From: Eledone cirrhosa
Lineage: Eukaryota
DNA length: 64,000 bases
Assembly: GCA_964016885.1 (NCBI GenBank)
Contig: OZ024740.1
Location: 367,722,001-367,786,000 of the forward strand
Reading direction: 5' to 3'
This document shows, piece after piece, positions 3,510 to 60,156 of the stretch; position 1 is the stretch's first letter, and every line of letters starts with the position of its first letter. The notes under the pieces were generated by a model, which saw only the letters and a program-made list of their open reading frames with translations, made no database searches and was not told the DNA's origin. Position numbers and translations under genes: made by a program.

Positions 3510-3731
3510 TAAAATAAAGTTAAATAAAAGTCAAATGATTAAAATTTAGCTTCGTTTATTACTGCTATATATATTTCAGTGACAGCCATCTTTGGCTGTG
3601 ACCTCTTCAGGCAGTTTGAATTAGTATTTCAAACTGCCTGAAGAGGTCACAGCCAAAGATGGCTGTCACTGAAATATATATACCAGTAATAAACGAAGCT
3701 CAATTTTAATCATTTGACTTTTATTTAACTT

Positions 3732-3738
<7 letters not shown>
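3510..3738. repeat. Palindrome (arms ~110 bp, 7-nt loop) of Penelope pLTR containing two hammerheads
   Basis: 3510-3620 is the reverse complement of 3628-3738. Flanked by (TA)n. Confidence 0.95.
3561..3615 (-). ncRNA. Minimal type I hammerhead ribozyme, intact core (mirror copy 3633-3687 on plus has one stem I mismatch)
   Basis: ACTGC-CTGAAGA-GGTCACAGCCA aaga TGGCTGTCACT-GAAA-TATATA-TA-GCAGT, then AATAAA. Confidence 0.88.
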
Positions 3739-6750: not shown

Positions 6751-6819
6751 AAAAAAGTCGAAGAAGAAAAAGAAAAGAAAAAGAAAAAGAAAAAGAAAAA
6801 GAAAAAGAAACAACATAAT

Positions 6820-7009
6820 AATAATTGTTTCTACTTTTGGCACAAGGCCAGCAATTACCCAGTGCATTACTGGTACTTTATTTTATCGACCCCGTAAGGA
6901 TGAATGGCAAAGTAAACCTCGGCGGGATTTGAACTCAGAATGGCAAGGACCGTAACTCTATGCGTCAAAGCATGGCGTCCGACCCACTACCGATACTGCC
7001 AATCCACCA
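6820..7009 (-). mobile_element. tRNA-derived SINE, full length
   Basis: A box TGGCAGTATCGG, B box GAGTTCAAATCC, central CTTTGCCWTTCATCCTTACGGGGTCGATAAAATAAAGTACC (resembles the Meta/MESC-type SINE domain, from memory), tail GGCCTTGTGCCAAAAGTAGAAACAATT. Confidence 0.9.
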
Positions 7010-15312: not shown

Positions 15313-15486
15313 TATATATATATTTAGAGTACTGTGTATATATTCTAAGATAATAACATTTTGCTCCTGTGCAATATTAAATAATAATTTCGTGTGAAAT
15401 ATAAGAATTTATGAAATAATTAATATAATAACCTATATAAGTATATATATATATATATATATTTCAAACGAAATTATTCAGGAATG

Positions 15487-15605
15487 TTTCAGGAATATTC
15501 AATGGAAATATATTGTGCTATCAAACGTGGTGGACGGTGGTATTTCAAACTAATATTTAAATGAGTAGTTATTTCGATTTACATTTCTTCTTCATTTACA
15601 GTGTT

Positions 15606-15685
<80 letters not shown>

Positions 15686-15809
15686 TATAAACACTGTAAA
15701 TGAAGAAGAAATGTAAATCGAAATAACTACTCATTTAAATATTAGTTTGAAATACCACCGTCCACCACGTTTGATAGCACAACATATTTCCATTGAATAT
15801 TCCTGAAAT
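15487..15809. repeat. Inverted repeat (arms ~120 bp) centred on a (TA)n tract
   Basis: tttcaggaatattcaatgg...tttacagtgtttata, then (TA)n, then tataaacactgtaaa...ccattgaatattcctgaaa. Confidence 0.92.
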
Positions 15810-18677
15810 ACTACTTGCATAATTTCCCAACCCAAAATATCATCAGAATCCATCCTAATTGCTAGTCAACACAAGCTATTTTGTAAGTAATAATTTGTTT
15901 TACAGTTAACATAACGTAATCATGTAAATTATAATGTAGAAGCGTTTTCTTTCTATAATTTCCATTTAATCGAAATAGACTTCCTTCCCTAGTAACAAGT
16001 TTAAAATCGAATTATCAGGTGAAACGCGTTTTTAGGCTACTACTTTTCTCATAGGTAGATGCTTTTCAGATTTCACAATTTTATATCTCATAAAAATATC
16101 TAATTGTTCATGAAACTTTTGTTTTTTTTCTTTTTGTCAATCGCCTACGGATATTTATTTCCACAATTTGTTTACATCGCAAATTTCATTGTCGCTTTTT
16201 ATAGGTCTTCAAATTTCGTTTCTCGACCCGTTGTTAGTTTTTCACGATTTCACAATTTTAAATATAAGGAAGGTGAGAAAAAAGAAAATGTCCGCATCTA
16301 ACAAAAACAAAATATCTCTAGGTGGTAACAATTTACGATTTTGTTAAATCGTTTTATATGCGAAATTTTTCTTTAATATAGAATACAAATTAAGGATGCT
16401 ATAAATAGAATCAGTGTTTTATTGAAAACAGAAACAAATTTGAGAATTCTATTTTTTTCCAATAAATCATGCATCGGTGTATGTTGAAATCATAAGGATC
16501 TTTCTCAAAGGAACATATATTTCAATGACTGTTACATTGTTTTGTTGCACATAGCTGTACAAAAACTGAATATTTGTCTATCAAAGCTAATAGTTTGAGT
16601 GATTTATGCGATGACATTTCACCCGTTAATCTGGTACTGCGCAAACACCCACGGCAAAATTCAGTGTTTATTTTTCGTTTCCATGGCAACATTGACTATG
16701 TGTATTGTGAATGTTGGGAAATAGTTGCTTATACTTCCTACTATTTTTCATTTGCGAGTGTGGTAGGTCTATTGTATTGCTGTAGATTAGCTCAAGATCT
16801 CCGCTATTGAATAGAATTGTGCATTGACGAAAGACCTTCACGCTCAAATCGTTCAGTCTACATTCATATCCCTTACTACATTATCAAATGTATTCTTTCT
16901 TTGATTCATGTTTATGGCTCGGGTTGTATCTGATGTTCCTCGACTGGTTGTTCGTATATGATGTACATTCGTGTCAGGTCAGCCCTTTAAAAAAAATATT
17001 CAATCATGATAATTCCTTCTTTTGACTCCTGCAATGTTTAACTAGGACTATGCCATTCAAAGTACGTTCCGTTTAACTTGCATGCTAAGATATGTTTTTT
17101 TGTGAGATTTATTCATATGACTCAAATTTGGGAACGTGTTTTGGGGGCTACCTTTTATCTAATATCAGATGCTTGTGGTAGAACTCAAACCGTGGATTAT
17201 CCAGAATATGTTTGAAATATACCACATTCATATCCCAGCTAGACAATATGACGCCAACAAGCGAGCTGTTATATTCTCTCTCGTCCTGGTAATAAATAAT
17301 CTTCAAAATGGACACATTGGAGAATGTCCTTGGATTCTCTACAATTAGGAAATCACCAATGTTCGTATGTCTATCAAGGTTTGAACAAAATCAAACCAGA
17401 AGAACAAACAAACAATAATAACTTAGTCAATGATACAAAAGATATTGCTTCTATTTTTGCCTGTGTCTATATTTCAAAATATAGATACAGGCGAAAGTTG
17501 AAGCAATATCAATGATCGGGTTTGTTTTGATCAATGTTATGAATCGCTCAAAGTGACAGGTAAATGTAAAGGAAATGTAAAGGTCATGCACTGATTGAGT
17601 TTGCATTTAAATATGTTTAACATACAACATCCAACAGCTAAGGGAAAAAAGCAGAAACAGCTTTTGTCGGCTGTCGCATGGTAACGAGATCGAGGTTTGT
17701 TTTAAGTGCAGAGTATATTATGTTACTAGCTAGAGGCAGGTCTAGTTTTCGAATGGGTATCTAAGCACCATAGACATATACAAATTAGACTAGCAACCAA
17801 TATAGACATGTAAATCTTCAGGCCTATATCGATAAACATATGTAATGTTTTGGCAGATATGTCGCTAGCTGGTAAAATAAACCCCACCTTCCATGTTTGC
17901 ATGTTCCTTATACTAGTTATATCTACAAAGATCATACCAAACAACAAATATGCTTTGCTCTATAGACTTTCCTGTCAAACTCCAAATAGGAACCATCCGG
18001 AAATAACTCATAATGTAGGGTATACTTATATATATATATGTATATATCGATAAATAAACTGTAAAAGATAATTGCCTCCAAATTCCTCGTTCATTAATGC
18101 ATTGTCATTAACTAAACAGTTTCTAATGTTCAGTAGATCAAGTAGATTTTTTTACATGAATATAATTTAATTCTGCATATATACGCTTGTGCTGCCGAAC
18201 ATATGTATAGATCAACAATTTAAAACTATGATAATATTCCAAGGAATATATATTTTAATTAGTTCTTTTTATTATATTTCTTTTCACTGAATTTAATAAA
18301 CTTCAAAATATATTTGATCTAGAAAAATCCCTCCCTAGACATATATATAGGAAATATTCTATAAAAAAACACTATTAAGAAGCAGAAAATATCATCAAAG
18401 AAATAAACGTATTATTCGACTCTTTCAAGATTGCTATGACGGCTAGGTATTTATTTCATTTTCTGGTGAATGGAGCTTTATTAAATATTTTATTTCCAGC
18501 ATTCAATTTATAATTTTAACAAGCGACTGCAATTAGAGACATATATTTTATCAAGCTTATGCTTGATTCAAATGCTGAAAACTATTTTCAGAGAGACAGT
18601 TGATGTAAGATTATAGGTTTTTGGTCACTTAGCCGATATTTAGAAATAAACCATTTTATTATTTATATCTACCCTGA

Positions 18678-18897
18678 GGGCCGTTGATTGGCAGTATCGG
18701 TACAGCAACGAACAACATGCTTTTTGGCATAGAGTTACAGTCTTTTACGATCCGAGTTCATATCCTGCCGAGGTTAACTTTGCCTTTCATCCTTACGGGG
18801 TCGATATAATACAGTACCAGTAATGCAGTTGGTCGATTTGATCGACTTTCCTCTCCCTCAAAGGTATTGGCCTTGTGCCTAAATCTCAAACCAATAT
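18678..18897 (+). mobile_element. tRNA-derived SINE, diverged full-length copy
   Basis: A box, B box, central domain and GGCCTTGTGCC tail. Confidence 0.85.
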
Positions 18898-20358: not shown

Positions 20359-20729
20359 AAAGAAGTATTTGTGTGTAGGTTGGCTTATATCCTGCCACTA
20401 TTTCACGTGGGGGAGGGGGGGGGGGGTAAACAAAAATGCGTGTGTGTTACAACCAATATCAAAATTTGAAAGATTTGAAAAATATTATCTGAAGTAAGAA
20501 AACTGTGTCAGAATCGAGAAGTGTAAAAAATTACAACTCTTACACTATCATCGAGTGGTGCGTTTAAGGGCAAATGAGATAAAAGTGGAATGTAAAAGAC
20601 CAAAACTTGGGTGTCAACAACGGAAATGCAAAGGACTACAGTTCGTATTTCGGCATAAAGTACATATGCGCATATGTCAACGCACATCGTTGCAAGCACA
20701 CACGCACAAACACAGACTCAGGTGCATTC
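20359..20729. repeat. Left arm of an old ~370-bp inverted duplication (right arm 22618-23022)
   Basis: For example tgtcaacgcacatcgttgcaagcacacacgcacaaacacag is mirrored by ctgtgtttgtgcgtgtgtgcttgcaacgatgtgcgttgaca. Confidence 0.88.
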
Positions 20730-20919: not shown

Positions 20920-21957
20920 GTTACCTTGGGTTCGGTGTGTTGGGGCTACTGTCCCTATAGCTTGAGGGAAGTTCCCATCGCAATGTGTTGTTATTGTCCA
21001 TATAGCTTGAGGAAGCTCCGGTTCTGAGGTGTCTATATGTACCGAAGAAGTCAGTTCTGAGGTTTATTAGGCTGCTTCCACCGCTGAGTATCTCGAGGGA
21101 CTCGATCAGACATAGTTTGCAGATGCCAGATCCCCCTATATCAAGTGGTACTTTCCTGATTTTGGACCAGACCAGAGAGTACGGGGTCCTGTCCAGCTTG
21201 AGCTTCCAGATCAGTTCGGAAAGAGCCGTACTTTTCCTATTGTCCTCCCTATTAAAGTAATGGCGATGGTTATACCATCGTTCTTTGAAGCTCGTTCATG
21301 TGGCCCCTATGTAAAGGTGCTCAGAGTTGTGTTTTTTTTTACTCTACATCCGTATATTAAGTTCTTCCTTAGGCATTTATTACTAAGGGGACATAATGTG
21401 GGGGTTCTGCAGTTGCAGGAGTTGGTCGACCCCTGAGTGCCTAATGTGGGGTCCGCTGAGTAGGGTGGGTTGTATCACGTGATTTTTCTACGTCTATTCC
21501 TAAGTGGGTGGATTGAGCGTGCTGTGGGCTGTTGGGGAGTTGTTGGGTTGCTAGTGGTTCCCGCATTCTTGCATCCCCTTTGGGGGTTATGTGTGTTGCA
21601 GGATTCCCGCCCGTACCTGTGGGGTGGTTGTTGCTCACGCTGGGAGTTCTACAATGGGATGATCCTTCATCCGTCCTTCTTCATGTCTTGCGGTTGGGGG
21701 CTTGGGCCCGGGTGGTTAGTATCACCCCTGAGACCGCTACACGTACTGGGTTTCATCTCATGGCTAGGTGTACGCGTCCTTTTCGCTAATGTGGTGGTGT
21801 TGGGTACATGGTTTTTAGTGGTTTCTGCTGTGCCTCTACTGTTAAAGCCCCCCCCCCCCCTCCCGGATATCGTGGGTCGGGGGGTCGATGGGCTATGATT
21901 ATCATGGCGCGTCGGACTATAAGATATATTTTGGACATGCACCGCCTTATTTAGAGC
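20920..21957 (-). mobile_element. 5'-truncated Penelope-like element (Neptune-type Zn-finger linker plus GIY-YIG endonuclease)
   Basis: ISYSPT, a Pro/Thr-rich insert, NSCNCRTPTLCPLSNKCLRKNLIY, then HLYIGAT*TSFKERWYNHRHYFNREDNRKSTALSELIWKLK...CKLCLIESLEIL. Confidence 0.88.
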
Positions 21958-22019: not shown

Positions 22020-22090
<71 letters not shown>

Positions 22091-22096
<6 letters not shown>

Positions 22097-22617
22097 GAGA
22101 AGAAAGAATACTGCGTGGTTGCACATGGGTTACATATGATAAAAATAGTCCTCCGTCAGTGATTTTTCAACCTTCATTGGTATTTCATCGCTTTAAAAAA
22201 TCATATACCTCCGGTTGGTTCGAGCAATAGCTAAACGGTAGGGTAGGAAGTGAGAAGGGGAGAAACAGCGAGTGAGTGAGTGGAAGTGCGAGGAAGAGGC
22301 CAGTCGAGAGAAAGTGTAACTGACAGAGGGGGCGAAAGAAGGTGAGAGAAACAGAGAGAGCGGGGAAGCAGTAAGAGAGAAACAGACAAACGCAGCTGAG
22401 GAAAATATATATAAAAAACATGAAAATAAAGAATACTGCGTGGTTGCACATGGGTTACATATGATAAAAATAGTCCTTCGTCAGTGATTTTCCAACCTTC
22501 ATTGGTATTTCATCGCTTTAAAAATCATATACCTCCGGTTGGTGCGAGCAATATCTAAATAAAGCTATTGGGACAAGTAAATCGCGTAAAGCGAGCGAGA
22601 CAGTAAACAACAGGGAG
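22091..22617 (-). repeat. ~1.6 tandem units (~325 bp) of a pLTR/retrozyme-like repeat with permuted hammerhead motifs at 22148-22218 and 22473-22542
   Basis: Direct repeat offset ~325 bp. Homologous to the 27.1-29.5 kb unit. The 3' end abuts (TA)n. Confidence 0.85.
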
Positions 22618-23029
22618 GATTGCACCTGAGCCTGTGTTTGTGCGTGTGTGCTTGCAACGATGTGCGTTGACATACACGCATATGTACTTTATGCCGAAAT
22701 AGCAACTGTAGTCCTTTGCATTTCCAGATTTTGATACTCAAGTTTTTGATGTTTTACACCCCACTTTCATCTCATTTGCTCTTAAAACGCACCACACGAT
22801 GATAGTATAAGAATTGTAATTCTATACACTTCTCGTTTCTGATACACAGGTTTTCTACTTCAGTTAATATTTTTCAAATGTTTCAAATGTTGATATTGGT
22901 TGTAAGACACACGCATTTTTTATTTTTTATTTTTTATTTTTTTATTTTTTTATTTGTTTGCCCCAAATCACCACGTGAAATGGAGGCAGGATATATGCCA
23001 ACCTACACACACAAATTCTTCTGAACATA

Positions 23030-23457: not shown

Positions 23458-24990
23458 ATTTCTTCGTGAATGATCTGAAACTCTATGCCAAGAACATGGA
23501 TGGGATAAAGAAATATCTTGACCTGGTTACAACATACTCATATATGGAGAGTTTGGCCAAGATATAGGAATGGAGTTTGGCCAAGATAAATGCACATATA
23601 TGCCTGTAAAGCGGGGAAAAACAACAATCCAATCTAGCCACATTTGTATCAATGGCCTAACTGTTTCACCAATATCTGACGGGGACTGCTACTGATGCCT
23701 GGGGATAGATGGGAACATATCCTATAATGGTACCTAATAAGGAACGCGTAACCAGGGACTACTATACACGATTAAGAAAGATATGGTCATCGGAACTCTC
23801 TGCGCAAAAATAAAAAGTGGCTCACAATGTGTTTGGAATACTCAATTGGAAGATAGACGAAATTCGAGCGATTGATGTTAGAACTCGAAAAATACTAAAC
23901 AACACCAGAAACTTCCACTTCAACAGTGTCATAGACCGGCTTTACTTGAAACATAAGCAGGGAGGCAGAGGCCTCACATCAATCCAGACAGCATTTGAAT
24001 GTCCCATCATATCCATCCGATAACATCTACGAACCTCATAGCGTAGGAGCCCGTCTCTCGAGCAAGTCTATCTGCATGAAACTGATAAGATCATGAGAGT
24101 TCGGAAGGAACTCCTCGAGAGGTATTCCCTGGGTGATAATCAAAAACTCACACCCAGGGAAGTTGCTCAGCAGTATCGCAGTGAATCTATACAGGACAAA
24201 CTGGATTCTTATCAACAACAAATCATGCATGGATATGTTGCCAGGAAGCTCCTATGAGGCATACTGTAGTGGCCAAAACATTGTACATTACAATCCGTAG
24301 AAAAAATATCCCCGATACTAAACACATTAAAAGCTACAGCAATGTGGAAGACATACGTATACATAATAGGAAAGAGTACTGGAAGAATGTTCCAGTAAAA
24401 AACCCAATAAAATGCAGGCATAATAGACCAGATATTATAATATGGGACAGGCAAAAGAAGGCATGCACAGTAGTGGAAGTTAGCTGGCCAGCAGATGCCA
24501 ATATAATATCAAATATTAGCGAAAACGAGAATATTTATGCAGAACTGATGAAAAATCTGCAGATACTCCACCCTGACAATACCTTCAGATGTATGCCTGT
24601 GATTATTTGGGCACTGGGATATGTTAGTAACTGCCTCAATACAAATCTTGAGAATCTAGGCTTCACAGGAACAGAAAGAACACAACTAGTTAGGAAATTA
24701 CAAGTACAATCCATTAATGGAACAGTAAAAATATGTAAAACGTTCCAAAAATGTTGCATGTAATACCTGCATATACACACGTATCGATACTAAGCATACA
24801 TGCACACGTACAACTCGAAACATACACATACATACATACAATAACATCCATATCTCCACATGCAGGCAGACATGCAGACATATCTGCCTAGTTGATGTTG
24901 TGTAAATTCCAATGAGAGAGTCTTGTGTCTGTTACAGACCGTCTTTCTCTCTACTGGCAAAACATTGTGAAATTATAAAACTAGAAGAAT
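23458..24990 (+). mobile_element. R4/Dong-type RLE non-LTR retrotransposon, 5'-truncated, disrupted, with an internal deletion
   Basis: FFVNDLKLYAKN, IDRLYLKHKQGGRGL and HNRPDIIIWDRQKKACTVVEVS (PD-D/E endonuclease). Ends at (CATA)n. Confidence 0.88.
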
Positions 24991-25001
24991 ATACATACAT
25001 A

Positions 25002-25145
25002 CGTCTCGACGGCTATTTCTGGACTCAGTCAAGAAATAGCCGTCGAAACGGCTTGAGCTCTGCCGTCGGAGTTAAACATTTTCCTATCACCCACTCTACT
25101 ACCCTAAGTATTGCGTACTCTGGTGCGCCATGGTCCATCTGGTTC
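25002..25145 (+). mobile_element. Short pLTR-like fragment with the 3' half of a hammerhead and a 5' fold-back hairpin
   Basis: Hairpin 25002-25050. GAAA-CGGC ttgagctct GCCG-TC at 25045-25067. Ends at (TA)n. Confidence 0.55.
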
Positions 25146-27009: not shown

Positions 27010-27116
<107 letters not shown>

Positions 27117-27140
27117 TTATATATATATATATATATATAT

Positions 27141-29461
27141 ATTCACCTAGCTTATGCTAACAGAATAACTATGAAGCTTGTTCCCTTCCTTCTACGGTTA
27201 GCTATCCTCTTTGTTGTTATCTTGTTTCACTCGCCTTACGCGTTTTAATTGTCCTAATAACTTAATTTAGTTATTATTGCACCGACGTGAGGTATATGAT
27301 TTTTAATGCAATGAAATATCTATGATCGTCGGCAAATCACTGATGAGGGACTTATTTTATTACATGTTATCCATGTGCAACCAGCAGTATTCTTCTCCCC
27401 ATTTTTTCACATATATTTACCTACTGCGATTCTGTTTTTTTCTCTCTCTCTCTCTCTCTCTTACTGCTCCCTCGCTCTCTCTGTTTCTCCTACTTTCTTT
27501 CGCCCCCTCTGTCATGTCAGTTAACTCTTCCTCACACTTCCACTCACTCACTCACTGTTTCTTCTCTTCTCACTTCACCCCGTTCGCGACGAAATCATTT
27601 TCTCTCTTTCTCACATTTGAATTCGCTCCTGAAAGGTCTTTTTTCTAAGCGCTCATATATTCACCTAGCTTATGCTACAGAATAACTATGAAGCTTGTTC
27701 CCTTCCTTCTACGGTTAGCTATCCTCTTTGTTGTTATCTTGTTTCACTCGCTTTACGCGTTTTAATTGTCCTAATAACTTAATTTAGTTATTATTGCACC
27801 GACGTGAGGTATATGATTTTTAATGCAATGAAATATCTATGATCGTCGGCAAATCACTGATGAGGGACTTATTTTATTACATGTTATCCATGTGCAACCA
27901 GCAGTATTCTTCTCCCCATTTTTCACATATATTTACCTACTGCGATTCTGTTTTTTTCTCTCTCTCTCTCTCTCTTACTGCTCCCTCGCTCTCTCTGTTT
28001 CTCCTACTTTCTTTCGCCCCCTCTGTTATGTCAGTTAACTCTTCCTCACACTTCCACTCACTCACTCACTGTTTCTCCTCTTCTCACTTCACCCCGTTCG
28101 CGACGAAATCATTTTCTCTCTTTCTCACATTTGAATTCGCTCCTGAAAGGTCTTTTTTCTAAGCGCTCATATATTCACCTAGCTTATGCTAACAGAATAC
28201 CTATGAAGCTTGTTCCCTTCCTTCTACGGTTAGCTATCCTCTTTGTTGTTATCTTGTTTCACTCGCTTTACGCGTTTTAATTGTCCTAATAACTTAATTT
28301 AGTTATTATTGCACCGACATGAGGTATATGATTTTTAATGCAATGAAATATCTATGATCGTCGGCAAATCACTGATGAGGGACTTATTTTATTACATGTT
28401 ATCCATGTGCAACCAGCAGTATTCTTCTCCCCATTTTTCACATATATTTACCTACTGCGATTCTGTTTTTTTCTCTCTCTCTCTCTTACTGCTCCCTCGC
28501 TCTCTCTGTTTCTCCTACTTTCTTTCGCCCCCTCTGTCATGTCAGTTAACTCTTCCTCACACTTCCACTCACTCACTCACTGTTTCTCCTCTTCTCACTT
28601 CACCTCGTTCGCGACGAAATCATTTTCTCTCTTTCTCACATTTGAATTCGCTCCTGAAAGGTCTTTTTTCTAAGCGCTCATATATTCACCTAGCTTATGC
28701 TAACAGAATAACTATGAAGCTTGTTCCCTTCCTTCTACGGTTAGCTATCCTCTTTGTTGTTATCTTGTTTCACTCGCTTTACGCGTTTTAATTGTCCTAA
28801 TAACTTAATTTAGTTATTATTGCACCGACGTGAGGTATATGATTTTTAATGCAATGAAATATCTATGATCGTCGGCAAATCACTGATGAGGACTTATTTT
28901 ATTACATGTTATCCATGTGCAACCAGCAGTATTCTTCTCCCCATTTTTTCACATATATTTACCTACTGCGATTCTGTTTTTTCTCTCTCTCTCTCTCTCT
29001 TACTGCTCCCTCGCTCTCTCTGTTTCTCCTACTTTCTTTCGCCCCCTCTGTCATGTCAGTTAACTCTTCCTCACACTTCCACTCACTCACTCACTGTTTC
29101 TCCTCTTCTCACTTCACCCCGTTCGCGACGAAATCATTTTCTCTCTTTCTCACATTTGAATTCGCTCCTGAAAGGTCTTTTTTCTAAGCGCTCATATATT
29201 CACCTAGCTTATGCTAACATAATAACTATGAAGCTTGTTCCCTTCCTTCTACGGTTAGCTATCCTCTTTGTTGTTATCTTGTTTCACTCGCTTTACGCGT
29301 TTTAATTGTCATAATAACTTAATTTAGTTATTATTGCACCGACGTGAGGTATATGATTTTTAATGCAATGAAATATCTATGATCGTCGGCAAATCACTGA
29401 TGAGGGACTTATTTTATTACATGTTATCCATGTGCAACCAGCAGTATTCTTCTCCCCATTT

Positions 29462-29465
<4 letters not shown>
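27141..29465 (+). repeat. Tandem array of ~4.5 x 511-517 bp units in (TA)n; each unit carries a permuted hammerhead/K-turn motif
   Basis: Motif starts at 27282, 27799, 28314, 28825 and 29339. Units are nearly identical apart from (CT)n length and a few SNPs. Confidence 0.95.
27282..27351 (+). ncRNA. Candidate non-circularly permuted hammerhead ribozyme with kink-turn (representative copy)
   Basis: CCGACG-TGA-GGTAT-A/TGATTT-ttaatgcaat-GAAA-TATC-TAT-GAT-CGTCGG-c-AAATCA-CTGATGA-GGGAC. Stems I and III and the K-turn pair and covary with the 22-kb copies. Confidence 0.65.
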
Positions 29466-29541
<76 letters not shown>

Positions 29542-29542
29542 T

Positions 29543-29574
<32 letters not shown>

Positions 29575-30081
29575 TATATACATGGAAAAAATGAAATTTC
29601 ATTTCTCACTCTTAGTACGGCTGATAATTAAATATAAGTATGTAAAGGTACATACATATATGTATACATACGTACAGTAGTATGTATATTCATACATATA
29701 TGCCCACATATATATATATATGTACGTATGGGTTTAACGAACATTTATTATAATGCTCGGTTTGTTTGTAAACAAACAGCCCGAATTATTAGTCGTACAA
29801 TGTTCGGCAATCATCGTTGCCATTTTGTTCAACACTGACAAAGGAACGATGTACTAGTTTCTAGCTTATTTGCTGTCATCAGCACCGTATCCCTTCCTGT
29901 CAGTTGATTGGACGTTTGAAAGTATATACTTTCCTTATGCATATTAACGGCTGAGCAGCCTAATTTGCATATCGAGTGACTTAGTCGGCCGGGCGTACCG
30001 AAAACGATATATACGTACATATATATATATATATGTGTACATGTATGTATGTATATACATACTACTGTACGTATACATACT

Positions 30082-31277: not shown

Positions 31278-31851
31278 TCACTCTCTTAAAGTTTGTAAGT
31301 TTAATCATCATCATCATCATCATCATCATCATTATCTATTAAAGGCAGATTGTTGTTGTTGTGTGTGTGTGCATGTTCCATGTTTATACATTTGCACAAT
31401 TCCAAACCGATTCGACTCAACGTCTGTAAGAATGCTGTAAATGGTCTACCTTAAGTCAACGACTATTTATTTCATTCAAACTCACCCACAATTACGTAAA
31501 TAATCGATAAAACTAAATACATGACGCTTTACCCTTCTAATACATTCAGATTACCTCACTCTACTCCCCTTAAAATTCGATAAAACTACATGAATGCTGC
31601 AACTTTCTCTGATGAAATCTGAGAGAAGATATCTGAATGTATTAGAGGGGTAAAGCGTCATGTATTTAGTTTTATCGATTATTTCCGTAAATATGGGTGA
31701 GTTTGAATAGAATAAAGAGTCGTTGACCTAAATTCGACCATTTACAACATTCTTACAGACTTTGAGTCGAATCGGTTTGAAATTGTGCAAATGTATAAAC
31801 ATGGAACAGGCGCACACACACACACAACAACAACAACCTGCCTTTTATAGA
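30517..31851 (-). mobile_element. Probable non-autonomous Helitron
   Basis: Minus strand starts A|TCTATAAAAGGCAG plus (TTG)n(TG)n and ends with an imperfect hairpin CCCGaccaaacgcCGGG followed by CTAG|T. Internal ~92-bp tandem repeat at 30829-30998. Confidence 0.55.
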
Positions 31852-31858
31852 TAACGAT
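31328..31858. repeat. Inverted repeat, arms ~220 bp (31328-31551 / 31631-31858), 79-bp spacer
   Basis: Arms are reverse complements with scattered mismatches. Confidence 0.92.
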
Positions 31859-34177: not shown

Positions 34178-34879
34178 CACGCACACGCACACACACACAC
34201 ACACACACACGCACCTCTATATGTGTGTGTACATCTATGTTTATATGTGTGTTTCTGTGCATACATTCAGAAAGCATATATTTAAACCTATTTCTATTTA
34301 CACTATGCCATATTAATTTTCTTATAGCTCCTTATTGATTTTTCTCTGTGGCTAGGTTCACAACTAAATCTGTGAAATGTTTTAGCGATCATTCGTGCAG
34401 AATTAATTTTGACTTACTATATTTTAAGACATTTCTGGCATAGAAAGTTTTTAGATCAGCATGTGTATCATTGAAGCGACGGCAAATTTGAGTTATGGGA
34501 TCCAACAGCTTACAAAATAATCTTCCCTTTCTCAAATATTCAGGATATCCAGCTGGTGTAGTGTACAGAACTACAAGAATTCCATCACAAATATAACTCT
34601 ATCCATCCCTCTCGCAAATTCTCTCTCTCTCTCTCTCACTCTATATGCAGACAGAAAGCGTGGGAGAAAGTGGGAGAAAGAGTGAAAGAAAGAGAGAAAG
34701 CGATAGATAGAGAGAAATAAAAATAGAAATAAAGAGATAGATAGAAATCAAGAGAGAAAGAGCGAGATAGAGAGAAAAAAGTGGAAATAGAGAGAAAGAG
34801 AGAGAGAGATAAAAGAGAGCGAGTGAAAGCTCAGGATTAACAGTTTGAAGTTTGTAAAATAATTATTTAGCAGAGGACT

Positions 34880-35063
34880 GGCTGTGGATTGGCAGTATCG
34901 GTAGAGGGTCAGACGCCATGATTTGCAGCACAGTTAGGTCCGTTTACGAACTGAGTTCAAATCCCGCGGAGGTTAACTTTGCCTTTCATCCTTACGGGGT
35001 CGATAAAATAAAGTACCAGTAATACACTGGTATAATTGATGGCCTTGTGCCAAAAGTAGAAAC
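34880..35063 (+). mobile_element. tRNA-derived SINE with 19-bp TSD
   Basis: AATTATTTAGCAGAGGACT (34861-34879) and AATTATTTATCAGAGGACT (35064-35082). Confidence 0.92.
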
Positions 35064-35281
35064 AATTATTTATCAGAGGACTTGATTCTTGGGGTAGTAG
35101 AGTATAAAAATATTAGAGAGCCGAGTCATCGACTCTCTCTCTATCTCTCTCTCGCCCTCTCTCTTATATATATATATAACATTAGAATTTTATTTCTCAA
35201 CGTAGCACAGCTGATACATAAAAGTTAGTATTCATCCGTTCACACACCCACGCACATACACACGCACACAGACACACACAG

Positions 35282-36512: not shown

Positions 36513-37004
36513 CCGGGCTGGATATCCGATCGTGCGGTTAAACCACTGGGGGTGAATGACCCCTAGTGTTTGTCAGGGCATTCTTCTAGGAGAAGGCAAC
36601 TCAGGAAACTGGGATAACTCCAACATAAAACCTGCGGCTCAGTAGTTACCGATGATGTTGATATTATCTTCCTTTCGGGTTATAGCTACTGGTGCTCAGA
36701 GAGTGGGATTGGCTCAGTGCACAGCTTTTCCTCACCTTCAACAAATCTTCACGCACAGGCATTGCACGATAGCATTGATTGATAATTATTAATAATTGTT
36801 TCTACTTTTGGCACAAGGCCAGTAATTACTGGTACTTTATTTTATCGACACCGTAAGGATGAAAGGCAAAGTCAACCTCGGCGGGATTTGAACTCAGATC
36901 GTAAAGAGACGTAACTATGCTGGCAAGCATGGCGTCCGACCCTCTACCGATACTGCCAATCCACCGCCCTTTATTAATAATGTTATATCGTGCAATGGCC
37001 ATAC
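36513..37004 (+). mobile_element. Second bipartite RTE derivative, interrupted by a SINE and truncated at (TATG)n
   Basis: ATGACCCCTA, TTCTAGGAGAAGG, GAGTGGGA and GCACAGGCATTGC are shared with 14755-15312. It resumes TATCGTGCAATGGCCATAC (RTE 3' end). Confidence 0.65.
36797..36969 (-). mobile_element. tRNA-derived SINE with TTATTAATAAT TSD
   Basis: A and B boxes, central domain, tail. TSD at 36786-36796 and 36971-36981. Confidence 0.9.
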
Positions 37005-37039: not shown

Positions 37040-39263
37040 TTATCTCTTTCTCTTAATTTCGAGTTTATTTTTTTGACCGACTACCTTCCTGGTGGCAAGG
37101 TTGTAAAATAAAAGCAATTGTCATCCCTTGAATCGCAAGAATGTTTTGCAAATCCAAGTTCAGTCATACTTTGGTCCAAGCGGGTTGGTATATAACCCGT
37201 AGCTCCAATAATTATGGGTATGAAGCTAAAGGTGTATCTTGGATACTGGATTTGTAAACTCCTCATGAATGGTCCGTAGATGTCCTCCTTCTCCTGTATT
37301 TTTCTGACAACGTTTACATCAAGTGGGCAGCTGAACTCCACAACAGAACACGTTTTCAATGTGCGGTCCCAAACAACAATATCAGGTCGGTTGTGCTTTA
37401 ATTTGGTGCAGTTTTAATTTTCAGGTTTAACCAGTATTCCTTAGTGCCATCTGTCTCAATATATTCTTCCTCGTTTGTTGTTAATTTTGTTTTCCGAAGT
37501 GCGTTCCAGATGGTTCTAGCTATCCCATCGTGTTTCATGGGGAGGTAGTAGCGAGATGACATTCTTTCGCAGCTGGCACCAATGTGGCTTACATCCTCGA
37601 TCTTTGTTTTACATAGCCTACATTTATTGTCACCTGATGACCCTCCCCTTTTGTGCACCAGATATTTGGTAGGGAGTTCTTGTTCCTGTATTGCATATAG
37701 ATATACCTCAAGGTGTGATGTCATAAACTTGTCGGAACTCCATGCCAGACTTTTTAAGTGGTTTATCCTCTCTCTGGTCTGTGTTTTACGTCTCAAGTAT
37801 CCATGCACAACTTTTTCTGTAAATTGGTCAAGTTTTTCATCTTGTTTAATCATTGAATAGGATCTTCCGATTTCTCTGGGTGAGAGATTTATATCAGGCT
37901 TTATTCCATATCTCTCTTCCAGATCAGTGGCTATTCTAATGATATTTTCATGGTCATAAACCTGGGCAATATGGTTGCCAACCTTTTTCCTCTGTTGAAG
38001 ATGTTGCTTCAGTGTTACTATCCGGGTCTCATATGATGTTAATATGGATTTTAGACCCCGGCCACCTTCCTTGCGTGAGAAGTATAGCCTATCCACATCA
38101 CCATTGATGTTAAAGTTCCCAGTAACACTGAGACGTTTGCGAGTTCTAACATCCATCTGACTTAGTTCTTGCAATGACCAGTTCAGCAGGCCAAATGTTG
38201 GCGTTAGAATTGACACAGCATAAGTATTGTGGGCAATGTATTTGTTGTACGCTGACAGTTCTGATGACCATATTTTCTTTACTCTTCTGAGATATTCAGT
38301 TCTGGTTCCCTCCTTATTTATGGGTCCATCATATCTGACATTCTCATCCTGTTCAAGATATCTGTAGTTGTCACCTGACTGTAGAGGTTGTATTGTCAGG
38401 TCGTTCATCTTCCACGTTTTACTGCCAAATATGCACACTTGGACTCACCAAATTTCATTTTGATGTCTGTTGAAAATTGTGTAATGAGGTCCAATTGTTT
38501 CTTGATGTCATTGATATTTGGCCCATACAACTTCAGGTCATCAACAAAGAAAAGATGGGAGTCACTTCTGGACTCACTTCTTTGTATACCTTATTTCCTA
38601 AGTAGGTAAGATAGTGGATTTTGTGAGAGAAGGAAGAGTAGCACTGACAAGCTATCACCCTGAAAGATGCCCTTCTGGTAATGTATCTTATCAGTCTTAA
38701 CTTGCTCCTTCTCACCTCTAAGGATCAAATTGGTGTATCAGTTCTTGGTCAGACGTTTAACAGCAGCTACCAGTGGTTGTGGGATTTTGGCTAACTGTAA
38801 AGCCTTAACAATCCACCCATGAGGTACACTATCAAATGCTTTTTGATAGTCCAGCCACACCACAGTCATGTTTCTGCGATTCTTTGTTGTTTTTTCTTGA
38901 ACCATTTTATTAGATAGTAGGTGATCCATGCAAACCCACACGTCCCTCTTTCCACCAGCTTGCTCAGGTGTTATGATGTTGTTGGTAGCACAGTGATCCT
39001 GTAAGAACAGGTTAAGGCACCCAGTATATAATTTATACATGAGGTTATGGCAGGCTATTGGGCGGTAATTTTTAGCAAGGGTGGTTTGGCTATTTTTTTG
39101 GAATGAGGAGAGTAGTGGCAGTTGATAACCTTATGGGCAGTTCTTGTGTGCCTTTAATGGTTTCTGTAAACAGCCGTATGAGATCTTGCCGATAGAAAGT
39201 GAAATTCTTCAACCAGTATCCTGTAATGAGGTCTAGGCCTGGTGATTTCCTATTCGACATTTT
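37040..39263 (-). mobile_element. R4/Dong-type RLE LINE (second family), 5'-truncated, flanked by (CATA)n on both sides
   Basis: WLDYQKAFDSVPHGW, FVDDLKLY, VDRLYFSRKEGGRGL, CRLCKTKIEDVSHIGASC, HNRPDIVVWD, VVEFSCP. Confidence 0.92.
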
Positions 39264-39364
39264 CTGTATGTATGTATGTATGTATGTATGTATGTATGTA
39301 TGTATGTATGTATGTATGTATGTATGTATGTATGTATGTATGTATGGATGTATGTATGTACGTA

Positions 39365-40222
39365 TGTTATTGTGGTTTTATAATTTTACAAATGTTTGCC
39401 AATAGAGAGAGAGTCGGTTTCTAACATAGACACAAGACTGTCTCATTGGAATTTACACAGCATCAACTAGGTAGATATGTATGCATGTCTGCATGCATGT
39501 GTAGATATGGATGGTATTGTATGTGTGGATGTGTGTTTTGTGTTGTATGTGTGCATGTGTATATGCTTTGTATCTGTACATGTGTATATGCAGTTATTAG
39601 ATGCAGACATTTTGGGATGTTTTACATATTTGTACTGTTCCATTAATGGATTGTACTGTTAATTTCCTAACTAGTTGTGTTCTTTCTGTTCCTGTGAGGC
39701 CCAGCTTCTCAAGATTAGTATTGAAGCAGTTAGTAACATATCCCAGTGCCCCAATAATCACAGGCATAAATCTGAAGGTATAATCAGGATGGAGTCTCTG
39801 CAGATTTTTCATCAGTTCTGCATAAATATTTTCCTTTTCGCTAATCTTTGATATTATATCGGCATCTGGTGGACAGCTAACTTCCACTACAGTGCATGCC
39901 TTCTTTTCCCTGTCCCATATCATAATATCTGGTCTGACATGCTTGCATTTTATAGGGGTTTTTACTGGAAAATTCCACCAGTACTCTTTCATATTATGTA
40001 TATGTACGTCTTCCAAACTGCTGTAGCTTTTAATGTGTTTATTATCGGGGCTATCTTTTCTACGGATTGCATTGTACAGTGTTTTGGCTACTACAGCATG
40101 CCTCATATGCAGATAGTACTGCGATGATATGGGTGGCACATTCGATGTTAATTCTGCAGAGTCTGCACTTGTTATCAAATCAAGGTGTTTTGCCTGCATC
40201 TCTATCTCTTTTGTGAATCAGG
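39365..40222 (-). mobile_element. R4/Dong-type RLE LINE 3' fragment (same family as 23458-24990), flanked by (CATA)n
   Basis: ORF 39597-40199 is highly similar to 24254-24763 (RPDIMIWDREKKACTVVEVSCP). The 3'UTR is shared. Confidence 0.9.
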
Positions 40223-41175
40223 TATGTATGTATGTATGTATGTATGTATGTATGTATGTATGTATGTATGTATGTATGTATGTATGTATGTATGTATATG
40301 TATGTATACATCTATGTATGTTTTTACTGTGTTCTTTGTTCATTGCCTTTCTCTCTGAAATGTAGCTATTATGAAGCCTTCTATATTAGTAAAATCTTTT
40401 AGCGTTATCTTTGCTGTTGCATTCGAACGTATCATAGAGCGGGAGGTGAATTATTCAACAGCAAGCCTTCATTATAATTTAACATTAGAAAAATCAGGTT
40501 TACGTAAATTGAAGGACAGTAAATCTACGAAGTAATCATTCCTGGAGCATTATGTATCAGCAAAATATAGAAAAAAATCTCCTTATTTGCGCTGAACATC
40601 CGCTGGCTTCGACGACGAGTGGTAGTTATTATTGTTGCTGTTGTCGTTTAATACCAAGCTCGTCCTGATACAATAAACCTCTGTGACCTGGCTAATATTT
40701 AGATAGCACACATCGGACTACTTCAGCGTATTAGTAGTAGCAACTGATTAGATTTTGAAATACACGCACATGAAAATAACGTGTAAGTACCCATAACGTA
40801 GTTCTCAGGGAGATCTAGAATAACGTAATGTGTGGAAAAAAATTGGGACTTCCGACTATAGGTATGACTAATATTTTCCATCTCATTGGAATAGAGGAGC
40901 CTGAATAAAATATCTCGCTCCAAGCCACAAGGCACTGTCTCAGATGGAATTGACCATAAGCATACACGTCCCGGCAGGTGACAAGCCCCACACTTTGTGT
41001 TAAGTAGTAATTATTCGGTAAACGAGCAATCGTTGCCTAGAAAATAGAGGCTAGTGATTTTATCACCTGATCTAACCACCAGAAATATTACATTGGTTGT
41101 ATGATTCCAAATATAATTGCCAATAAACATTTTCATCTCCATGCAACATACAAACCGAAAGCATTAATATATAAT

Positions 41176-41360
41176 TGTTTCTACTTTAGGCACAAGGCCA
41201 GCAATTACCCAGTGCATTACTGGTACTTTATTTTATCGACCTCGTAAGATTGAAAGGCAAAGTTAACCTCGGCGTGATTTGAACTCAGAATGTAAAGGGA
41301 CGCAACTATGCTAGAAAGCATGGCGTCCGACCCTCTACCGATACTGCCAATTCACCGCCA
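41176..41360 (-). mobile_element. tRNA-derived SINE with ~24-bp TSD
   Basis: AAACCGAAAGCATTAATATATAAT on both sides. Confidence 0.92.
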
Positions 41361-41524
41361 TTAAACCGAAAGCATTAATATATAATGCTACAGTAAATCT
41401 GTCAGATGCTGTCTAAATGTATCATGAAAGATCAATACAAAAACCTTCATGTTCAGATAAAATACCAGCTCTCCACCTTTTCCCTAATATACCTGAAAGC
41501 TTAAAATCAGGACTATTAATAAAA

Positions 41525-41870
41525 TAATTGTTTCTACTTTTGGCACAAGGCCAGCAATTACCAGTGCATTACTGGTACTTTATTTTATCGACCCCGGAAG
41601 GATGAAAGGCAAAGTTAACCTCGGCGGAATTTGAACTATTAATAAAATAATGCTTTCTCATATAGGCACAAGGAGAGCAATTTTGGGGGAGGGGAAAGTC
41701 GATTAAATCGACCCAGTGCGTGACTGGTATTTTATTTTATCGACACGTAAGGATGTAAAGCAAAGTTAACCTCAGCGGGATTTGAACTCAGATCATAAAG
41801 GGCCGTAACTCTATGCTGAAAGGCATGGCGTCCGACCCTCCTATTAATTAAATAATGTCAATCCACCGTC
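41525..41870 (-). mobile_element. Two tandem SINE copies (5'-truncated copy with ACTATTAATAAAATAAT TSD, then a near full-length copy)
   Basis: Central domain and tail are present twice. Confidence 0.85.
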
Positions 41871-42949
41871 CTATTAATTAAATAATGATAACATAAAGCA
41901 TTGATGGGAAATCTAAGCTGTCCAAGAACGAGAGAGATAACCTCTATAACATATTGTTAACATCAGACATTATTTTAAGTTAAACGTATCTGCAGCGGAA
42001 CCACTCAGAAGAAAGGCTGTCATCGCATTATTCAGTGACATACTATTTTTGAAATTCAGTGACATACTATTCCAACGTTGATACACGATAATTTACAATA
42101 AATATGATTCAAATCATTTTCGTTTTTCATAAGAATGTCCTGGATAGTTTTCTTATGGACGTTTAATTTCTTTTATGGCTAGAATTGTTCTTGTCTTTGG
42201 TAATACATATCTCAATTATTTTGTAGAGAATGTCGCGAGTACATCAAATCTCAGTCGTTGGATTTAAATACATTATGCTACCTGTAGTTCTTATAACAAT
42301 GTAATGAACAATTTATATTTTTTTTGACTCTAGCTCATTGTGTACCCTCTTTTATCAATTTTGGTGGATTTGATTTTGTGTGCTTCTTTAAAATTTTCCA
42401 ATTAAGGACAAAACAGCAACAATATTAATTGATCACAACTCGCAAGCAACATGTAATTACTAGAGATAATTCTTATGAACATAATTACGATGATGCGTGT
42501 TATGAAGGTCTGATTATTTATTGTCCAATTGAACCGTTAGAAACAGTAAATTCTTTATTTCACCAACCACGCAAACAGTTATTGCCTTATCCATGAATAA
42601 CTCTACGATTCTATAATAGTAAAGTGTACGGTAGAATACTTGTTGTATTGGAAGAATTTTAATTAATTTATATTACACCACTAATGATAAAGCAATCACT
42701 ACTTAAATGTGTGATGCGGAATAAATTGAAAAAAAATACACTACTCGGGTTAGTAACGAAGTTTGTATTAAAATAATAATGTAAATATATGGAATTCAAT
42801 GGTAAATAAATCTGATCATTGGAAGTAGGGTGACAAATCTTGGCATTAGGTGAGGTTATTAGAACCCACCAGCAGAACATATTATAACCGTGATTGTAGA
42901 ATAAATAAAGAATAAATCAAGATTGTAGAATAAATAAAGAAATATCAGA

Positions 42950-46155: not shown

Positions 46156-46424
46156 ATATATATATATATATATAGATATATATATATATAGTTTAAGCAA
46201 AGAATCGCTGCTTTCACCCTTAACGGGATCTTCTGATATATATTTATCCTTATCGAGCCCTCTTTGGATTTTAGTCTTCACATTTATTATTATTACTATA
46301 TATATATATATATATATGATTATATATACCAGACCAGCCAACCTCTAAAAATCATAACGAGGAGCATATAAAAATGTGCCTTAAAAGGGGGAGAAATGGG
46401 GCAAAATGGAAAGATTTTACATAA

Positions 46425-46635
46425 TTGTTTCTACTTTAGGCACAATGCCAGCAATTACCCAGTGCATTACTGGTACTTTATTGTATCGACCCCGTAAGGA
46501 TGAAAGGCAAAGTCAACCTCGGCGGGATTTGAACTCAGATCGTAAAGGGACGTACGATCTGAGTTCAAATCACGCCGAAGTTGACTTTGCCTTTCATCCT
46601 TACGGGGTCGATAAAATAAGTACCCGTAATGCACT
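46425..46635 (-). mobile_element. 5'-truncated SINE with fold-back inverted duplication inside a 17-bp TSD
   Basis: GGAAAGATTTTACATAA flanks both sides. 46553-46635 is the reverse complement of part of 46460-46545. Confidence 0.88.
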
Positions 46636-47014
46636 GGAAAGATTTTACATAACGAAAGCTATACTGACTGGGAGACTTGACAGGTTTGACATACATATAT
46701 GGATACATAGAATATACATTTCTTATTGTCAAATACTATTTTGTATATGATTTTATATATGCTTAGTATCTGTACTCGTATATTGTATGAATTAATGATA
46801 ACGACACACATAATTGAAGAGTGAATTATGAGGACATTCTAATCCTAATGCTAATATAATTAAATTAGAGATTGTTCCCTGTAATGTACATAATTTATAT
46901 TTAGTTAGATATTATTTTTTTCACATGACTCCGATAGAAGATATAGATTTATATTTACAGAATGAGAACTCTTTCTGAAATTCTATTTCGGGATGTATTG
47001 TAGACCCGTTATTA

Positions 47015-52980: not shown

Positions 52981-53079
<99 letters not shown>

Positions 53080-53165
53080 GTAGGAGGTGAGTTTTATTGT
53101 AGTACAATAAAGCAATGCAGATATCGGATAAGAAGAACTCTACAGTTTGTGGGACTGGAGTATAC

Positions 53166-57498: not shown

Positions 57499-59464
57499 AA
57501 CACATACACACATATATATACGTGTGTATGCATGTGTGTGTCTGTCTGTGTGTGTGTATATATATATATTTAATCTATTAGAATAAGGAACACCTTTCCT
57601 TTCATACATATTATAATGAACACACGGCTGTATTCCAGTATAATATTGAAAAAAAAATGTTTTTCCTATTCCATTATTATTTTCTATACTTTGTTTGAAA
57701 CACTAGCTTTCTTAAATCCACGTATCTCCTAAAGTTTCGTCGCCCTCAGTCCTCTATCTTAGGAATCAGCATGGTTACGCTTCTGATGCATTGGTCAAAT
57801 CTTGGCTTCGTTATTTCTTGCCTGTAAAATGTAGGAGACGCTGGAAGGTTGATTCGCGAATTAATCTATATTATCAAGTATTAAAAAGCATTTTATTTTT
57901 CTTACTGTTATTCCTTTCGTGAAATTCAGTTTACAAAGTTTTATAAATAATATAGAAATATTAGTTTATATATTTCTACATACAATTATATTTTTGATTA
58001 AAATAAGTTTATATGATTATTTAAAATCACCTTATATTGGCTTTTGCAGTCATTGGAAAGTTTTCAGAAAGTACATGAACCAAAGTTCTTATCAAACACC
58101 TGTCAAGGCATATTAATAATTATTAATTGATTTCCCGAGCGTATTTTCTATGAAGACTTTCTGACACTTGTTTTCATTATTCTTCGAACTTACAAGTTTC
58201 TATTCACAGTATAGAGACCGAATGTACCAGAATGTTCATCTGTTTATGAAAGTGTTCATTATACGCATGTGCTTATATAATAGAAACACTATTATCCTGT
58301 TCCTCATATCACGTAGAGAATGTGCTATTCCTATCGATCCGAATGACGTTCACGAGTTATCTGATTGTTGTTGAAGTTGAAGTACATCACATAATATTCT
58401 TGGAAAACAGTTTGTATTAACAAATCGTCTTCTATCTCTTCAAGCACTATATTATCAGTCTGTCTTTCTCTTTAATGTAAATTTGCCAGAACGAGCTGGA
58501 AATAAACTTCTGAATGTATATTTATAAATTACGATTTAGTGACCTCAAATTGAATTACTGTATATTCGGGTAAGGAAGAAAATTATAGTTTTATCATTCA
58601 ACGTCCATCTTTTAGCCTCCTATAACTTGATAGTATGGAAATAATCCCTGTGTAATTACTTTTATAAAGCATGTAGTTTTCGATTATACAAATTACTTTA
58701 ATTTAACATATATCAGCTGTCTATACTTAACTGCATGTTAATTGAATGTTAACTGTATAATTTATAGATGTTCTTATTATCACCTCAATATCCATGTCTC
58801 CATGTAAAGTAACCATATTGACTTATATTAATAGAACTAATTCTGGTTCAAATTACACGCGGAGTAATATTCTAACTTGAAAAAAACGAATCGTATTTAA
58901 TGGAAGCATTCAGCACCGAACCTTGTCAGTATTACATGTTGCACTTGAACTGCAAACAAATAAACCATACGACTCACAGCTGATATCATACGAAATTTAG
59001 AATCGTGTCTCATTGACGTATCACAGCCTAGACTAACTGTAGCACTCTTCAACTTCAACTTCAATATTTGAACTGTCCAATCGATACCATTCTGACTAAA
59101 GATACCACTCCAATTAGATGACAGTCGATCAACATGAAATATTTTTCTGAGAATTCTTAATTACTTCGTCTAAACTCCCAGTACACGAATATAAATGAAT
59201 ATCTCTTTGTTAATGATATAGTTGAATATAGCTTCTTGCAGACACCATTACTGGTAGTTTTAAACACAAATATAGATAGAATGTTTCGTGCTCAGAATAT
59301 TGATGTTTGATTAACTAAGATATTTTCCTCCGTCAATGACTTCCTAATAAACAAAGTTCTAGATTTCGCTCATGCAATTTACATTTACGAGGAGTTGGTT
59401 GGACTAATAATTTATATATTCAATTATTAATGATTTGTATCCATTTTAAAAACATCATGCATAT

Positions 59465-60156
59465 CCTGTCTCACTCGCTTTACGCGTTTTAATTGTCCTA
59501 ATAACTTAATTTAGTTATTATTGCACCGACGTGAGGTATATGATTTTTAATGCAATGAAATATCTATGATCGTCGGCAAATCACTGATGAGGGACTTATT
59601 TTATTACATGTTATCCATGTGCTACCAGCAGTATTTTTCTCCCCATTTTATCACCTAAACTGCGATTCTGTTTTTTTCTCTCTCTCTCTCTTACTGCTCC
59701 CCCATTCTCTCTGTTTCTCCTACTTTCTTTCGCCCCCTCTGTCATGTCAGTTAACTCTTCCTCACACTTCCACTCACTCACTCACTGTTTCTCCTCTCCT
59801 CACTTCACCCCGTTCGCAGCGAAAGCAATTTCTCTCTTTCTTACATTGCATTCGTTCGGGAAAGGTCTTTTTTCTAAGCGCTCATATATTCACCTAGCTT
59901 ACGCTAACAGAATAACTATGAAGCTTGTTTCCTTCCTCTACAGTTAGCTCTACTCTTTGTTGTTTTCCTGTCTCACTCACTTTACGCGTTTTAATTGTCC
60001 TAATAACTTAATTTAGTTATTATTGCACCGACGTGAGGTATATGATTTTTAATGCAATGAAATATCTATGATCGTCGGCAAATCACTGATGAGGGACTTA
60101 TTTCATTACATGTTATCCATGTGCTACCAGCAGTATTTTTCTCCCCATTTTATCAC
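59465..60156 (+). repeat. ~1.4 units (502-bp period) of the same permuted-hammerhead repeat; motifs at 59526-59595 and 60028-60097
   Basis: High identity to the 27141-29465 unit. The same 3' end abuts (TA)n. Confidence 0.93.

Follow-up and report, generated by a model that had tools for sequence, protein, structure and literature searches.

A tandem array in the Eledone cirrhosa genome as a candidate non-autonomous Naiad-type element with a predicted split hammerhead ribozyme

Introduction

Naiads are Penelope-type elements (PLEs) that insert at (TA)n and occur as partial tandems; the accessible part of PMC8557442 reports no canonical hammerhead ribozyme in them and marks ten as 'HHR_core' and eight as 'HHR_half_core'. 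Hammerheads with their blocks in non-circular order have been reported almost only from metatranscriptomes and metagenomes, according to the sections of PMC10085705 consulted here. As described there, ribozymes of type SGC cleave in vitro, and in known hammerheads at most 1-2 nt lie between CUGAnGA and stem II. Our literature search, which covered few subscription journals, found no paper that describes a stem II detached in this way, or Naiads with permuted hammerheads. The words 'Naiad' and 'ribozyme' are never used in the accessible part of an octopus repeat annotation of 2026; for alternative hammerhead forms, the consulted part of a ribozyme paper from the same year refers only to the 2023 work and two others; and the consulted part of PMC10162972 holds nothing on a detached stem II.

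Here, we describe a tandem array in a stretch of 64,000 nucleotides (the window), which is AT-rich, eukaryotic-looking and rich in microsatellites and broken LINEs. We propose that the array is a non-autonomous Naiad-type PLE with a split hammerhead, whose cleaved monomers would be circularised and copied round by a Naiad reverse transcriptase (RT)/GIY-YIG protein in trans. Judging from sequence, we give this reading a probability of about 0.5.

Results and discussion

Tandem array and insertions

The full units of array A (Table 1) are identical at 506/511 to 512/514 aligned bases (~99%), with 39% GC and a + strand of 68% pyrimidine. Identity to array A is ~93% for insertion B and ~77% for insertion C. 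A coding function was rejected, as frames on the + strand, 138-151 aa long, have low complexity and do not run on from unit to unit, and ARAGORN gave no tRNA-derived SINE head in the element. No promoter was recognised. The 5' ends differ among the three insertions, and the 3' ends of the array, B and C lie 62, 64 and 63 nt past CUGANGA, each at (TA)n. An earlier note on this DNA had described a 4.5-mer of near-identical non-coding units, which the unit boundaries and the identities above bear out in the sequence as assembled, and three insertions sharing a 3' end at (TA)n and differing in 5' end and unit number, which also holds; its distance of 55-60 nt past CUGANGA is corrected by our values. 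Random 3' ends, which the note named as grounds for refutation, were not found, the 3' end being fixed in all three insertions and a preferred one in raw reads.

Table 1 Positions of the array, its predicted ribozyme parts, the related insertions and the target tracts in the window
Feature	Position	Strand	Remark
Tandem array A	27139..29466	+	4 full units + 5' half unit, 4.5 units; non-coding
Array A full units	27139-27656, 27657-28170, 28171-28681, 28682-29195	+	518, 514, 511, 514 nt
Array A 5' half unit (unit 5)	29196-29466	+	~271 nt
Left (TA)n tract	27015..27142	.	13-nt interruption at 27107-27119
Right (TA)n tract	29466..29580	.	identical 13-nt interruption at 29532-29544
Insertion B	59462..60156	+	1.4 units, period 502 nt, 2 intact predicted ribozymes, end at (TA)n
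Insertion C	22090..22623	-	diverged subfamily, 1.65 units, period 324 nt, end at (TA)n
Predicted split hammerhead, unit 1	27276..27346	+	predicted cut after 27296
Detached stem II 5' strand, unit 2	27793..27798	+	pairs with 27824-27829
Outer helix P0 5' strand, unit 2	27799..27804	+	pairs with 27844-27849
Block S, unit 2	27807..27819	+	stem III 3' strand 27807-27812, predicted cleavage nucleotide A27813, stem I 5' strand 27814-27819
Block G, unit 2	27824..27838	+	stem II 3' strand 27824-27829, GAAA 27830-27833, stem III 5' strand 27833-27838
P0 3' strand, stem I 3' strand and CUGAUGA, unit 2	27844..27863	+	27844-27849, 27851-27856 and 27857-27863
Predicted split hammerhead, unit 3	28308..28378	+	predicted cut after 28328; one P0 pair broken
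Predicted split hammerhead, unit 4	28819..28889	+	predicted cut after 28839
Predicted split hammerhead, unit 5	29333..29403	+	predicted cut after 29353; element end 62 nt beyond

The 13-nt interruption occurs in only 2 of the 19 long AT tracts of the window, both flanking array A, and is followed by 23 nt on the left flank and 24 nt on the right. As it is common to both (TA)n flanks, these flanks likely represent a target-site duplication of 36 to ~100 nt. All eight substitutions in array A (0.34% per base) are private to one unit, as expected from a single synthesis event on one template. Each insertion, moreover, has its own period (514, 502 and 324) and its own variants shared within the locus.

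The element was also searched for in independent DNA data, where the unit was partly present in 13 runs from 9 studies, with half its words or more in four; none of the 13 is recorded as RNA, which is neutral as to expression. Reads and contigs were compared for 4 of 17 runs on the list. Organism A contributed 1,177 contigs and 3,234 reads that fit the unit, with depth peaking over the predicted ribozyme. The element family is abundant. The unit-to-unit junction was recovered in four contigs of X2, seven reads (three starts) in X15 and one contig of organism B. At the 3' end, 198 raw reads exit the unit into (AT)n at 27932 and 190 exit at 27914 into a short spacer followed by (TA)n, these being RAD reads that may derive from few loci. 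As junctions and 3' exits both occur in independent runs, neither the tandem form nor the preference for this 3' end is confined to the present assembly, and the junctions also speak against the artefact in array length that the earlier note had allowed for. These data also bear on the view that the 4.5-mer arose by duplication at the DNA level after a short insertion, or by assembly inflation. One homopolymer indel common to the adjacent units 2 and 3 would fit that view, but differences particular to it occur in every unit, no two units have a substitution in common, and the array begins and ends at different unit phases inside the duplicated target. Together with the junctions outside this assembly, this leaves duplication or inflation hardly credible.

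Predicted split hammerhead

A descriptor allowing all six block orders gave eight matches in the window, all in S-G-C order, and found no type I, II or III hammerhead inside the unit. Stems I and III have 5-8 bp in these matches, and stem II has only 1 bp after CUGANGA. The GAAA-side strand has its 6-bp partner upstream, and after this partner comes a further helix of 6 bp, P0, with stem III inside it. The layout therefore opens, 5' to 3', with the detached stem II strand, P0 and a block of stem III strand, cut site and stem I strand, and closes with a block of stem II strand, GAAA and stem III strand, then P0, and finally the stem I strand with CUGANGA. Hammerhead nucleotides are numbered following general usage; so numbered, the predicted split ribozyme corresponds to type SGC with the chain opened again between A9 and stem II.

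The predicted cuts in array A fall after 27296, 27813, 28328, 28839 and 29353, at a spacing of 517/515/511/514, which is exactly where the earlier note had placed them and its 511-517-nt monomers. In insertion B, cuts are predicted after 59540 and 60042; in insertion C, ribozyme C1 is intact, with a predicted cut at 22528, and C2 (site 22204) has its last core A changed to G. Rfam gave no match at the gathering score across the window; a threshold of E up to 5, applied to 27600-28700, added just two snoRNA matches, taken as chance, and no hammerhead. Of the earlier reading of this locus, the non-coding, hammerhead-bearing, (TA)n-targeted tandem element of Penelope type stands; what it had not noticed is that the ribozyme departs from the type I form known from retrozymes and canonical Penelope pLTRs in its non-circular S-G-C order and detached stem II strand.

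The full layout, written as a five-element descriptor, matches eight of the nine copies, C2 being excluded by its core change. It was found in none of 1,836 dinucleotide shuffles of the window (stems I and III alone: 40 matches) and in none of 89 unrelated loci from pattern scans (6 viral and 83 metagenome stretches); a looser viral pattern scan returned at least 120 stretches. With stems relaxed to 4 bp, the sole pass among 209 loci was AT-rich bacterial coding DNA (L025), which was rejected, and this false positive means that the relaxed descriptor is unspecific.

Covariation was assessed in eight copies, six of them distinct, with unit 5 left out. Paired cells amounted to 93.8%, versus 26-46% in slid controls. 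Both sides of a pair changed once in stem II and twice in P0, one side changed once in stem III, and stem I was invariant; the stem II event is a compensatory U-A to C-G change in the copies of insertion C, at 22 kb, where two registers (4 or 6 bp) are possible for stem II. These in-window changes follow one split (A/B versus C), essentially two lineages and hence few events, and a pair-count measure of covariation was not significant (114/500). Paired changes also appear in reads, where T27795C occurs together with A27827G (stem II) and G27801A together with C27847T (P0). In organism B, a depth of 8.29 is common to the compensatory changes of stem II and P0 and to a stem III change from G-U to G-C, which points to their lying on the same contigs. 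We conclude that the element very probably has a conserved hammerhead-derived fold, and that the predicted ribozyme probably cleaves.

In ViennaRNA folds of the array units with their 3' flank, a rival hairpin hiding CUGAUGA was favoured (probability 0.79-0.91). In C1, P0 and stem III dominate (0.69-0.99) and the rival hairpin is not preferred. Such nested folding cannot score the pseudoknotted stems I and II. Within 27843-27863, the P0 3' strand can pair with CUGAUGA (7 bp) in array units, a pairing that is absent in subfamily C and possibly acts as an off switch.

Proposed link to Naiads

Naiad 3' UTRs were compared by eye in the accessible part of File S5 of PMC8557442. The split layout, in unrelated letters, occurs in at least 11 of the 54 Naiad consensus 3' UTRs, spanning ctenophore to octopus; three Acropora and two Octopus records are near copies, leaving about eight independent cases among the 11. 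Of 15 3' ends read whole, seven have the layout (Naiad-3_Chem, Movir-2, so named by file order, before Plae, then Plae, EuTe, Obim, Ovul and Esco, the last with a weak stem II), seven have no such motif and one is unresolved. Motif passages added Bfor, Amil, Aacu and Anas; for the four CUGANGA variants searched, the matches listed made up 45/62, 15/23, 15/25 and 43/43. Helix lengths, given as II/P0/III/I, are 6/5/5/6 in Ovul, 6/10/13/6 in Amil, 6/8/6/5 in Plae, 6/7/6/4 in Movir-2, 6/5/10/5 in EuTe, 4/9/5/5 in Chem-3 and 6/15/7/2 in Bfor. Naiad_Ovul ends ~70 nt past CUGANGA, at (AT)n. The first pair of stem II in hammerheads is usually G-C. By eye, the upstream strand supplies such a G-C first pair in 7/8 species-level Naiads, and the stretch directly after CUGANGA pairs as stem II in 0/8.

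Other forms were seen in the same file. Complete type-CSG hammerheads occur in at least seven nematode Naiad records (Nbra-1, -2, -3, Hcon and Hpol by header, two more by file position), and one record (part 17) shows an SGC form with a long insert. In the 3' UTRs of Naiad-1 and -2 of Clytia, CUGANGA is absent; two different stretches, conserved between them and structured in appearance, may represent another ribozyme.

It is conceivable that the split structure no longer cleaves and is kept as a recognition fold for a retrotransposon protein. The full break between CUGANGA and stem II is beyond the range described in the consulted part of PMC10085705, the monomer geometry, by reasoning, looks strained, and many Naiads in the accessible records multiply without a visible motif. 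However, in the examples compared by eye, CUGANGA (N = U, C or G), GAAA and a UH site (H = A, C or U) recur from phylum to phylum, and binding alone needs no such conservation of the core, so we regard a mere recognition fold as rather improbable.

The element has the (TA)n target, fixed 3' end, 5' truncation and partial tandem structure of Naiads, but these are also found in Hydra and other PLEs and are therefore not diagnostic. No Naiad ORF or RT motif was found within the window, autonomous Naiads being marked by an N-terminal GIY-YIG, CxC and DKA, and two element motifs had no exact match in the published Naiad 3' UTRs accessible in PMC8557442. Naiad membership is suggested by ribozyme layout and target, not by sequence. 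That the element is a Penelope-type retroelement we hold with high confidence; that its partner is a Naiad appears reasonably probable.

Beside insertion C, two (TA)n tracts enclose a Penelope-like endonuclease fragment at 20990-21500 (-), which is broken and internally deleted. Its motifs (RRKIT-YNPP, CNC...CPL...C, YIG, CKLCL) look Hydra-clade-like by eye against the accessible alignments of PMC8557442, and its longest frame had no Pfam match. This fragment, at 21 kb, was rejected as a direct parent, as it is Hydra-like by eye and has no DNA in common with the unit. The element might have been mobilised by another PLE clade such as Hydra, having only the ribozyme layout in common with Naiads: the fragment adjoins insertion C on the same strand, and Hydra-1_Obim also prefers (TA)n. 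Hydra elements, however, bear ordinary type I hammerheads (File S2 rows), and the fragment is set apart from insertion C by (TA)33, which makes a Hydra partner very improbable.

Neighbouring repeats

Other repeats of the window were recorded in passing. Segments 20432-20729 and 22618-22920 form an 89% identical inverted pair of ~300 nt that flanks both the Hydra-like fragment and insertion C. The pair probably belongs to a palindromic element, with both insertions placed in its central (TA)n. Further long near-perfect inverted repeats, some around (TA)n, lie at 2808-3103, 3510-3738, 15470-15826, 31328-31858, 46459-46637 and 52986-54424. An open 611-aa reverse transcriptase frame at 50047-51885 (+), which we take to be RTE-like, has an RVT_1 match (E 3e-31) and C-terminal C2H2 zinc fingers and looks young. 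A dispersed repeat of ~190 nt, SINE-like in size and without a tRNA by ARAGORN, occurs in both orientations (6816-7008, 18679-18848, 34879-35073, 36785-36971, 41163-41890, 46418-46640). LINE fragments with zf-RVT and a C-terminal restriction-like endonuclease motif lie at 37398-39130 (-), 39354-40107 and 24253-25002, including two diverged 3' fragments in opposite orientation.

Proposed copying mechanism

In the mechanism that we propose, each unit of a multimeric transcript would undergo one cleavage, most likely in an inter-unit reaction in which the loop of one unit receives CUGANGA and the partners of stems I and II from the P0 hairpin base of another. Linkers of 0-4 nt connect P0 to the far ends of stems I and II, and in several examples P0 also extends stem III, 0-2 nt intervening on one strand (in EuTe, 15 bp with one bulge). 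Cleavage between units is favoured because P0, running nearly unbroken into stem III, looks too rigid to bridge to the tops of stems I and II within one unit. By geometric reasoning, a single unit seems unable to close the P0/stem III cage, and so rigid a cage likely implies either inter-unit cleavage or P0 as an off state. Monomers may still be cleaved, since a similar geometric puzzle is reported for a few SGC ribozymes in the consulted part of PMC10085705.

The 511-517-nt monomers would then be ligated to circles, a lone circle being slow to cut. The endonuclease would nick (TA)n, and the RT would start internally, ~113 nt downstream of the cut and beside a short AUAU, go round the circle and stop at random, leaving 1.4, 1.65 or 4.5 units. 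The predicted cut lies 113 nt upstream of the element 3' end and no insertion is without an intact cut site. As only 113 nt of cDNA could be made from a linear monomer after cleavage, the template would be a ligated circle or an uncut multimer. Internal RT initiation, shown for another PLE in the consulted part of PMC11167929, would explain the fixed 3' end on either. Unit B1 has no internal AUAU, which counts against the initiation step. In the Anolis PLE, according to the same part of that paper, insertion in vitro did not require cleavage, and no reads ended at the cut.

The same element and ribozyme could instead be copied from an uncut linear multimer transcribed from an existing array, with slow or 5'-trimming cleavage and no circle. 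This would agree with the intact cut sites spanned by all insertions, with unprocessed RNA as the main substrate in the Anolis PLE (PMC11167929, consulted part), with the poor cleavage of minimal PLE hammerheads in vitro (PMC4209133, consulted part) and with the fold hiding CUGAUGA in array units. It presupposes, however, an array with 4.5 or more identical units as its source, and the substitutions are star-like (8/8 private); the locus-specific periods and shared variants would be given directly by a single-monomer template. We consider copying from an uncut multimer unlikely and lean slightly towards a circular template.

If the predicted ribozyme holds, the published statement that Naiads lack hammerheads would change, and the split form would explain reports of Naiads without them. 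So would the statement that, bar one weak bacterial candidate, non-circular hammerheads are absent from genomes of known organisms and have six block orders only. Among natural ribozymes, an architecture broken between A9 and stem II would be new. More tentatively, we suggest an undescribed seventh hammerhead permutation, with CUGANGA and stem II broken apart and firing by inter-unit docking, in Naiads and their non-autonomous circles; with the nematode CSG forms, non-circular hammerheads would then be high-copy in animal genomes and invisible to type I-III searches. Rolling-circle copying, if true, would explain the partial tandems of PLEs. With the layout as a descriptor, a class of hidden repeats becomes searchable, and the element offers a small non-coding substrate for asking whether PLE tandems arise by rolling-circle reverse transcription.

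Comparison with known systems

Among the known systems, each taken as described in the accessible parts of the sources cited, Naiads are alike in their (TA)n target, fixed 3' end, 5' truncation and partial tandems, and the split layout looks alike by eye in at least 11 consensus 3' UTRs, including Naiad_Ovul, Obim and Esco. The element differs in having no ORF and a unit of 0.3-0.5 kb, compared with 3.4-4.4 kb in Naiads (PMC8557442), and no primary-sequence match to the Naiad consensus sequences was found.

Type-SGC hammerheads such as HRIMA-1 (PMC10085705) have the S-G-C order, the short linker between stems I and II, all core nucleotides and a fourth helix linking the far ends of stems I and II, as here; CUGANGA, GAAA, the UH site and stems I and III are all present in the element. 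Unlike type SGC, whose block C is unbroken, the element has only 1 bp of stem II strand 3' of CUGANGA and its 6-bp partner upstream, the stem II 5' strand being cut from CUGANGA and placed at the 5' end, which no permutation of the six permits. The fourth helix here closes onto stem III on both strands, in contrast to type SGC, and type SGC is known only from metatranscriptomes (PMC10085705), whereas the present case lies in a eukaryotic genome.

Non-LTR retrozymes of animals (PMC7229834; bioRxiv 10.64898/2026.07.22.740005) are non-coding, low-GC tandems with one hammerhead core per unit, as is the short element described here (GC < 50%), and they are alike in their long target duplication and proposed PLE dependence. 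They are, however, defined by type I (CGS) hammerheads, whereas the element shows S-G-C order only and no Rfam match, and their monomer RNAs, linear and circular, measure ~170-400 nt against predicted monomers of 502-517 nt (324 in subfamily C). Finally, the minimal dimeric hammerheads of canonical PLE pLTRs (PMC4209133) are PLE-borne and probably need two copies, as proposed here, but their missing stem III is formed between copies, whereas in the element stem III is full and the proposed exchange would take place at stems I and II.
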